From a virus (taxonomy: Duplodnaviria > Heunggongvirae > Uroviricota > Caudoviricetes): a stretch of DNA of 9,774 nucleotides. Position 1 is the stretch's first letter. The number at the start of each line of letters is the position of its first letter. The notes beneath the pieces are model-generated. The model worked only from the letters and a program-made list of their open reading frames with translations, made no database searches and was not told the origin of the DNA. Shown one piece after another: positions 6,849-7,535 of the stretch. The stretch lies in the IMG/VR virus record IMGVR_UViG_2636415611_000002. The stretch is one strand, 5' to 3'. Position numbers and translations under genes: made by a program.

Positions 6849-7517
6849 CTATTTTTTCCCTGAAGCAGAAAACATTACTACAGTACCTTGAACCTTGGTT
6901 TTAACATTCTCGAAATGCTCTGAGAGTATATGTGTTAAGCCTTCTTCGGAATCTTTTGTGTTTGAAAAGATGCCTTTCTGATTGTAAATGCGCATCAGTT
7001 TTTGACCGAAGCTATTGTGCACAACTCCATCGCCAAGAATTGTGGCTCCGTATAGAGTTCCATCATCAGTTAAGGCCTGCGCCGCATTGCGTATTACACA
7101 GCTTTTTGTAGATATATTTCCAGGCAGGCAGTGAAGAAGGTAAAACATGGAAATGGAATCAAATTGACCATGTAACGCCGCGGGATAAGTTTCAAAAACA
7201 TCATGGCTAATTTTATGTTTAATTTTTGATTCCCCAGCCCTTGTAGATGCCGCGTTCAGGCTAGCTTCGTTCAAATCCATTAAAGATATCAGACTACTCT
7301 CAGGTACGTGAGTAAGGTAAAACCCAGTTCCAACACCAATATCCAGATGGTTGTTACCTAAATGTTCCAGAAAGTGTGGAAGAAGGTGTTCCTTTGTAGG
7401 ACATCCCCATGCAAGCCGATTTGATACTCCCAAAACCCACCAGTCATAAAGCTTTAGGGTAATTGGTGTGTAAATTTTAGCCCCATCATCTGTGTTTTTT
7501 TTCATTAATTTCACCAT
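6849..7517 (-). CDS. Class I SAM-dependent methyltransferase (Rossmann fold), 218-222 aa; probable start at 7505 (MKKNTDD...) with a possible extension to 7517
   Basis: Motif I LDIGVGTGF at residues 58-66, acidic residue after the next strand (MDLNE), motif II-like FDSISMFYLLHCLP; ATG at 7503..7505 preceded by GGTGA at 5-nt spacing, whereas the ATG at 7517 has no SD; AT-rich like the ipaH LRR region. Confidence 0.7.
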   Translation of the reverse strand: MVKLMKKNTDDGAKIYTPITLKLYDWWVLGVSNRLAWGCPTKEHLLPHFLEHLGNNHLDIGVGTGFYLTHVPESSLISLMDLNEASLNAASTRAGESKIKHKISHDVFETYPAALHGQFDSISMFYLLHCLPGNISTKSCVIRNAAQALTDDGTLYGATILGDGVVHNSFGQKLMRIYNQKGIFSNTKDSEEGLTHILSEHFENVKTKVQGTVVMFSASGKK

Positions 7518-7526
7518 GTTATAGTT

Positions 7527-7535
7527 TTATTTGTG
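7527..7535. repeat. Left copy of the 9-bp target-site duplication (TTATTTGTG) of IS1 copy 2
   Basis: Identical 9-mer TTATTTGTG directly abuts both ends of the IS1 (7527..7535 and 8304..8312). Confidence 0.9.

Follow-up and report, generated by a model that had tools for sequence, protein, structure and literature searches.

The window (the whole stretch of 9,774 nt that was analysed, from the Caudoviricetes record IMGVR_UViG_2636415611_000002) carries on its minus strand, at 6849..7505, a gene for a class I SAM-dependent methyltransferase of the ybcY family, comprising 218 codons plus stop when read from its conserved start. A first ATG at 7517 lies in frame upstream and extends the ORF to 6849..7517 (669 nt, 222 aa), and in the numbering of this longer ORF motif I, LDIGVGTGF, occupies residues 58-66. 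That the gene is a complete class I methyltransferase gene, as a first-pass annotation of the sequence had recognized from this motif, is borne out by matches to the Pfam families Methyltransf_12, Methyltransf_23, Methyltransf_25 and Methyltransf_11, all of which are above the curated cut-offs. The conserved start codon is the second ATG (M5, 7505), because M5 is invariant across 38 homologues, because the PHROG 2132 profile starts at this residue, and because in the K-12 pseudogene it is precisely the conserved ATG that has been lost (ATG to ATA, with a shortened A run). Directly 3' of the stop codon, a hairpin is found on the minus strand (6807..6845, dG -23 kcal/mol, z -1.97), which possibly represents a terminator with a weak U tract; the terminator scan did not call it. 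With 40.2% GC in the CDS, as compared to 54.8% in lom and the tail-fibre genes and 41.6% in the LRR half of ipaH, the gene indeed has the foreign, ipaH-like composition that had been ascribed to it. Only four nucleotides distinguish it from E. coli alleles, too few for dN/dS to be interpreted.

On the same strand and 3' of ybcY follows ipaHe (4890..6533, 1,644 bp), an intact gene of class #3 or ipaH2202 type that encodes a true T3SS effector of 547 aa, and 315 nt (6534..6848) lie between the ipaH ATG and the ybcY stop. On the other side, tfaX (8351..8536, plus strand; Caudo_TAP, K-12 tfaX, PHROG 2341) is a remnant of a tail-fibre-assembly gene and the usual head-to-head neighbour of ybcY, now separated from it by a 768-bp IS1 (copy 2, 7536..8303), whose insA/insB genes are on the plus strand and are transcribed away from ybcY. 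The position upstream of ipaH and the location in a lambdoid tail-fibre module had thus been assigned correctly, the gene being cargo of the tail-fibre/b-region.

Some further elements of the window are of interest. The two IS1 copies (1221-1988 and 7536-8303) are 99.87% identical and mutually inverted, and they bracket a 5.5-kb segment with lom, stf, ipaHe and ybcY, which gives the look of a composite transposon. Copy 1 lacks a target-site duplication (flanks CAGCCAGCAC and GAATTTTAT), and the sequence it abuts has 92% identity to the J-lom junction in strain JNU, pointing to an IS1-mediated deletion that may have removed the rest of the prophage. To the left of copy 1, in a stretch of 31-35% GC, a 111-aa ORF (524-859, plus strand) matches PHROG 4407 (E=3e-73) and no Pfam or PADLOC model; it is another uncharacterised phage cargo gene. 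At the other end, recognisable prophage sequence stops about 240 nt past tfaX at a 279-aa ORF (8780-9619, minus strand) that by eye looks like the orfB of an IS3-family transposase.

Identity and distribution of ybcY

The gene is an intact orthologue of E. coli ybcY and as such already catalogued. Its protein matches PHROG 2132 over the full length (E=1.2e-155, residues 5-222 against profile positions 1-218 of 218), retains 60 of the 60 family-invariant columns, and differs from its RefSeq orthologue WP_000239881.1, annotated as 'class I SAM-dependent methyltransferase', only by L19I and P110T, both at variable columns. In K-12, ybcY (b0562) is a pseudogene at the end of the cryptic prophage DLP12, where it is found in the order tfaD, ybcY (opposite strand), tfaX, appY, ompT. 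The two loci share 98.5% nucleotide identity over the gene, the tfaX partner, the promoter sequence and the 3' hairpin, but the window copy is an intact ORF, its promoter is split by IS1, and ipaHe is present in place of the 3'-side tfa gene. The K-12 frame (10153-10807 of the K-12 locus) is open apart from the lost start codon. As K-12 ybcY is a pseudogene, work on K-12 is uninformative with regard to YbcY activity, and a literature search for 'ybcY' returned only incidental mentions.

At least 80% of the ybcY CDS at 95% identity or more was detected in 3,799 of 5,426 complete E. coli genomes (about 70%), with up to four copies per genome. The positive strains comprise laboratory strains derived from K-12, O157:H7, O145, O111, ETEC, as well as animal, sewage and soil isolates. 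The gene also occurs in 15 phage records, all of Escherichia. The active lambdoid coliphages Lambda_ev243, 2G7b, PhiR26_1, Kati and Turner encode YbcY proteins with 98-99% identity, and they carry the gene in the same place and orientation, namely between stf/tfa and a tfa fragment, upstream of the hydrolase-ompT module. The gene order in Lambda_ev243 and PhiR26_1 is J, lom, stf, tfa, ybcY (opposite strand), tfa fragment, alpha/beta hydrolase, ompT, with int after ompT in Lambda_ev243. These phages are complete and devoid of ipaH, whereas in the window IS1 and other IS elements have truncated the prophage to a remnant; the synteny of the family is nevertheless kept in the window, with ybcY divergent from tfaX and 3' of lambdoid tail-fibre genes. 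Because of this distribution and the fixed phage position, ybcY is a standard b-region moron of the lambda-like phage lineage. Such temperate phages carry the gene on the opposite strand, between a tail-fibre assembly gene and tfaX. The idea of a candidate new effector-locus cargo finds no support for a gene that is annotated in K-12 and RefSeq and present in most complete E. coli genomes and in active coliphages.

Copies with 99% identity to the E. coli gene were also encountered in metagenome-assembled genomes filed under Bacillus sp. and Planococcaceae, where they lie on short contigs and are most likely mis-binned E. coli prophage DNA. The tfaX region (window 8455-8598; K-12 locus 9933-10076 and 10829-11122) duplicates, with 92-96% identity, the 3' end of the full-length tfa gene, and ybcY is thus flanked by two tfa 3' ends, a hint at entry of the ybcY cassette into the phage via recombination at tfa.

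The family as a whole is by no means restricted to prophages. An exhaustive search gave 181 representative clusters at E<=1e-30, mostly of about 220 aa and including clusters from Aspergillus, Nocardia and Acidobacteria, and a scan with one genome per species found relatives in 270 species, the best 80 loci of which span 29 genera, including Yersinia pestis, Proteus, Pseudomonas, Xanthomonas and Pasteurellaceae. The chromosomal homologues are 50-67% identical to YbcY, equal in length and retain every invariant residue; they reside outside prophages and have neighbours that vary by genus, as in Salmonella enterica, where the gene lies between a PMT_2 glycosyltransferase gene and cybB/hrpA. Uniform presence in non-pathogenic E. 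coli outside prophage or effector contexts and strong homology to a methyltransferase with conserved chromosomal synteny elsewhere had been named at the outset as observations that would speak against an effector-locus gene, and both were largely made: the former as near-ubiquity, though still in prophage context, the latter as conserved non-prophage genes in other genera. The GC content of gene and flanks is equal in Salmonella (47/46%), Yersinia (43/45%) and Erwinia (56/57%), whereas the gene is far richer in AT than its flanks in Enterobacter (39/52%) and Klebsiella (35/43%), and in E. coli it is likewise AT-rich relative to them. This base composition suggests an old residence of the family in some genera and a recent transfer in others.

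When all ORFs within 3.5 kb of 79 loci from these 29 genera were clustered, no neighbour was common to more than five genera, and the contexts in Salmonella, Enterobacter, Yersinia, Erwinia, Klebsiella, Nocardia and Acidobacteria had no recurrent partner. As there is no recurrent neighbour, the enzyme stands alone. An alpha/beta-hydrolase or esterase neighbour seen in three contexts was considered as a partner and dismissed, as these proteins belong to different families and do not cluster.

IS1 insertion in the predicted ybcY promoter

IS1 copy 2 is flanked by a perfect 9-bp target-site duplication, TTATTTGTG, with its left copy at 7527..7535, within the promoter spacer, and its right copy at 8304..8312. 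The element is 18 nt away from the first ATG of ybcY and 30 nt from the second, and after removal of IS1 and one repeat, 56 nt remain between the first ATG of ybcY and the ATG of tfaX; the duplication, the distances and the former head-to-head arrangement with the tfa remnant agree in all details with the initial description. In EIEC-like E. coli and S. flexneri, which lack this IS1, the intact upstream region could be recovered, and the alignment blocks of these uninterrupted loci overlap by exactly 9 bp, which indicates a simple IS1 insertion. The exact IS1/ybcY junction has no match in the GTDB representatives and no one-piece match among complete E. coli genomes. In four complete E. coli genomes, an IS1 is present at other positions not more than a few hundred bp from ybcY, and the neighbourhood has thus been struck by IS1 independently more than once.

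A constitutive RpoD promoter of the form TTGATT-17-TATAAC is listed for ybcY by Shimada et al. (2014), in the H-NS-bound spacer between ybcY and tfaX, and the reconstructed pre-insertion window as well as K-12 read TTGATT-TAATTCACAAATAAAAC-TATAAC-ATGGTG. In the window, the -10 hexamer TATAAC of this predicted sigma-70 promoter (7518..7523, minus strand) is still joined to the gene, and the -35 hexamer TTGATT (8318..8323, minus strand) lies across IS1 from it. The target duplication, CACAAATAA on the ybcY strand, falls within the 17-nt spacer, and the -35 hexamer is therefore now 777 bp further away from the -10 hexamer. The gene has thus been split from its native promoter region, as originally proposed, and this split can now be placed between the predicted -35 and -10 hexamers. 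A further candidate promoter upstream (8350..8323) is likewise separated from ybcY by the element, and all that the IS1 end itself supplies is a TTGGCA at 20-nt spacing to the retained -10 hexamer. As IS1 splits the predicted hexamers and its genes point away, the ybcY copy of the window is probably weakly expressed or silent, with the promoter being assigned from sequence.

Could ybcY still be a working moron, transcribed from a hybrid promoter that combines the TTGGCA of IS1 with the retained TATAAC, or from some other start? Hybrid promoters made by IS1 are known, the terminal repeat matches the -35 consensus at five of six positions, and the ORF has remained intact, its two conservative changes being confined to variable positions. 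However, the 20-nt spacing compares to a usual spacing of 16-18 nt, transcription of IS1 is divergent from ybcY, the promoter spacer is reported to be bound by H-NS, and the second candidate promoter has been severed as well. We therefore consider continued expression rather unlikely, albeit well conceivable, and favour a weakly expressed or silent copy.

Fold and substrate class of YbcY

The AF2 model of YbcY is confident (pLDDT 90.3) and consists of a single domain of 218 aa with the class I alpha/beta methyltransferase fold, which canonically has seven strands. The motif I residues D59-x-G61-V-G63-T-G65 are invariant, as is D81, the acidic residue that closes strand 2. Judged by its sequence, YbcY is a class I SAM-dependent methyltransferase. 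The fold matches those of methyltransferases acting on small molecules and lipids, and by this fold YbcY is most likely a cytoplasmic enzyme whose methyl acceptor is a small molecule or the head group of a lipid; it would use SAM and work alone. Sequence searches of the PDB with the protein and with the profile gave only weak matches, to the Rossmann core of JHAMT and UbiG.

The best structural match of YbcY is PmtA (PDB 8ys9), which is of similar size and combines the class I fold with an N-terminal helical lid, and YbcY could in principle be an R-type (Rhodobacter) phospholipid N-methyltransferase that, like PmtA, converts phosphatidylethanolamine to methylated derivatives. The structure paper of PmtA describes a catalytic Tyr10, a phosphate-binding set of Ser120, His117 and His147, and arginine membrane patches, and the invariant Y16 of YbcY is roughly in register with this tyrosine. 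The identity between the two proteins, however, is only 15-17%, the NCBIfam model of PmtA (Legionella) scores 16.6 bits versus a cut-off of 390, and the PDB sequence search has no match to 8ys9 at E<=0.01. We regard a PmtA-type activity as improbable. A paper dealing with methylated phospholipids described as 'endogenous' in E. coli was considered as well and set aside, because its subject is lyso-PC acylation and it is irrelevant here. The metal-dependent carboxyl O-methyltransferases CysG and BelI have a His-His-Asp calcium-binding motif and Arg22; YbcY has a partial positional resemblance in H129/C130, H167 and D189, but the His-His-Asp motif itself is not matched.

A wider version of the lipid idea would be that YbcY is an enzyme of lysogenic conversion, which methylates a head group of a host envelope lipid (by a PmtA-like N-methylation of phosphatidylethanolamine) or a common metabolite or xenobiotic. 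We regard this as a speculative idea with little probability. If it was true, most natural E. coli and those Shigella lineages that have an intact promoter would possess a chemical trait that biochemistry based on K-12 has missed due to the pseudogene in that strain. A phage nucleic-acid methyltransferase with anti-restriction or epigenetic function is highly improbable: direct inspection of the sequence finds neither a (D/N/S)PP(Y/F/W) motif nor the C5 motifs PC and ENV, the single-domain model of 218 aa has no target-recognition domain, no DNA-methylase Pfam family is matched, the PADLOC defence models give only a non-significant mad2 match, and the gene is on the strand of the b-region that is expressed in lysogeny and not in the early region.

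Relation of ybcY to the effector gene ipaHe

For ipaHe of class #3 (ipaH2202), a length of 547 aa and 1,644 bp, six LRRs, and a modal upstream region of 315 nt have been described (Dranenko 2022; Bongrand 2012). As this modal length equals the distance from ipaH to ybcY in the window, it suggests that the adjacency of the two genes is the usual arrangement in Shigella, and the loci inspected from EIEC-like E. coli and S. flexneri confirm it for these. In ipaH-free E. coli, shared sequence begins at 6806-6809, i.e. at the base of the 3' hairpin of ybcY, and the position of ipaHe is otherwise taken by tfa in K-12 and the phages, or by a ydfK-ynaM-pin recombinase segment in strain JNU. The site just 3' of the hairpin thus appears to be a recombination hot spot. 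Among the complete E. coli genomes, only nine contain the ipaH-proximal 266 nt; in FDAARGOS_944, the one of these nine that was examined, ipaHe is next to ybcY. A megablast search of plasmids with the ipaH upstream region as query hit nothing but the 3' end of ybcY.

S. flexneri SFBU1023 and strain ECMA0423 have an uninterrupted ybcY-tfaX spacer, but their ipaHe is broken by a 1,330-bp insertion of IS10 type. This is the reverse of the state in the window, and ybcY and ipaHe thus decay independently. The insertion is at a site equivalent to window 5921-5929, with a 9-bp overlap, and encodes a 402-aa IS10-type transposase. ECMA0423, with 4.44 Mb and two ipaHe loci, looks like a Shigella filed as E. 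coli. That the two genes would always travel together is contradicted by the ipaH-free E. coli and phages that possess ybcY. The comparison of these loci indicates that ybcY belongs to the phage backbone that received ipaHe, and not to the ipaH cassette.

Might the methyltransferase nevertheless be a type III secreted effector, or a co-cargo gained together with ipaHe, that methylates a host protein? It adjoins a genuine effector gene on the same strand, it shares the AT-richness of the ipaH LRR half, and the E. coli chromosomal genes icaR and icaT demonstrate that genes of this origin can encode T3SA substrates. IcaR and IcaT are ancient chromosomal genes whose products are secreted in a MxiE-box-dependent manner, and therefore a wide distribution in E. 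coli alone is no argument against secretion. For ybcY, however, the upstream region is devoid of a MxiE box. With up to two mismatches allowed, the whole window yields a single match, GTATCGTTTTTTTACAG (6652..6668, minus strand), an exact match with 0.01 expected by chance, and as this box is downstream of ybcY, it serves ipaHe and cannot drive ybcY. The supplementary tables of the RNA-seq study of the MxiE regulon (Hall et al. 2022; strain 2457T) contain neither 'ybcY' nor 'methyltransferase', which was a literature check only.

Several lines of evidence on the gene itself point in the same direction. It is found 98-99% identical in 70% of the E. coli genomes and in coliphages without ipaH, the sequence shared with ipaH-free E. 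coli ends before the ipaH promoter, and ybcY and ipaHe have been inactivated separately in different lineages. In the model, disorder is limited to residues 1-9, and the helix at the N-terminus, which contains the invariant YDWWVL, belongs to the fold; the closest structural neighbours are metabolic or small-molecule enzymes. With the effectors OspZ and NleE, YbcY shares the use of SAM and the occurrence in Shigella or attaching-and-effacing pathogens, but there is no sequence or family relationship, as the Pfam scan matched Rossmann-type methyltransferase families only, in line with the initial annotation. OspZ and NleE are known to lack the Rossmann GxGxG fold, which is present in YbcY. We thus infer that YbcY is not secreted, and consider an effector role very improbable. 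Among the fates that had been left open for the gene, a moron or silenced passenger fits the data, while a secreted effector does not.

In summary, ybcY of the window is very probably an intact, stand-alone moron of the prophage backbone, which is a neighbour of ipaHe rather than effector cargo, whose product would act on a small molecule or lipid without being a substrate of type III secretion, and which is probably weakly expressed or silent at this locus. The locus permits dating of events: the prophage backbone already contained the ybcY/tfaX module at the time the ipaHe cassette, which has its own MxiE-box promoter, arrived 3' of the ybcY hairpin, and independent IS insertions followed later, with IS1 in the ybcY promoter of the window and IS10 in ipaHe of some S. 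flexneri. For Shigella virulence, ybcY has very little bearing, as it is a resident of the prophage backbone that in the window is probably transcriptionally crippled. For the E. coli prophages, it is among the most widespread cargo genes, occurring in 70% of the complete genomes, and yet it is dead in K-12.
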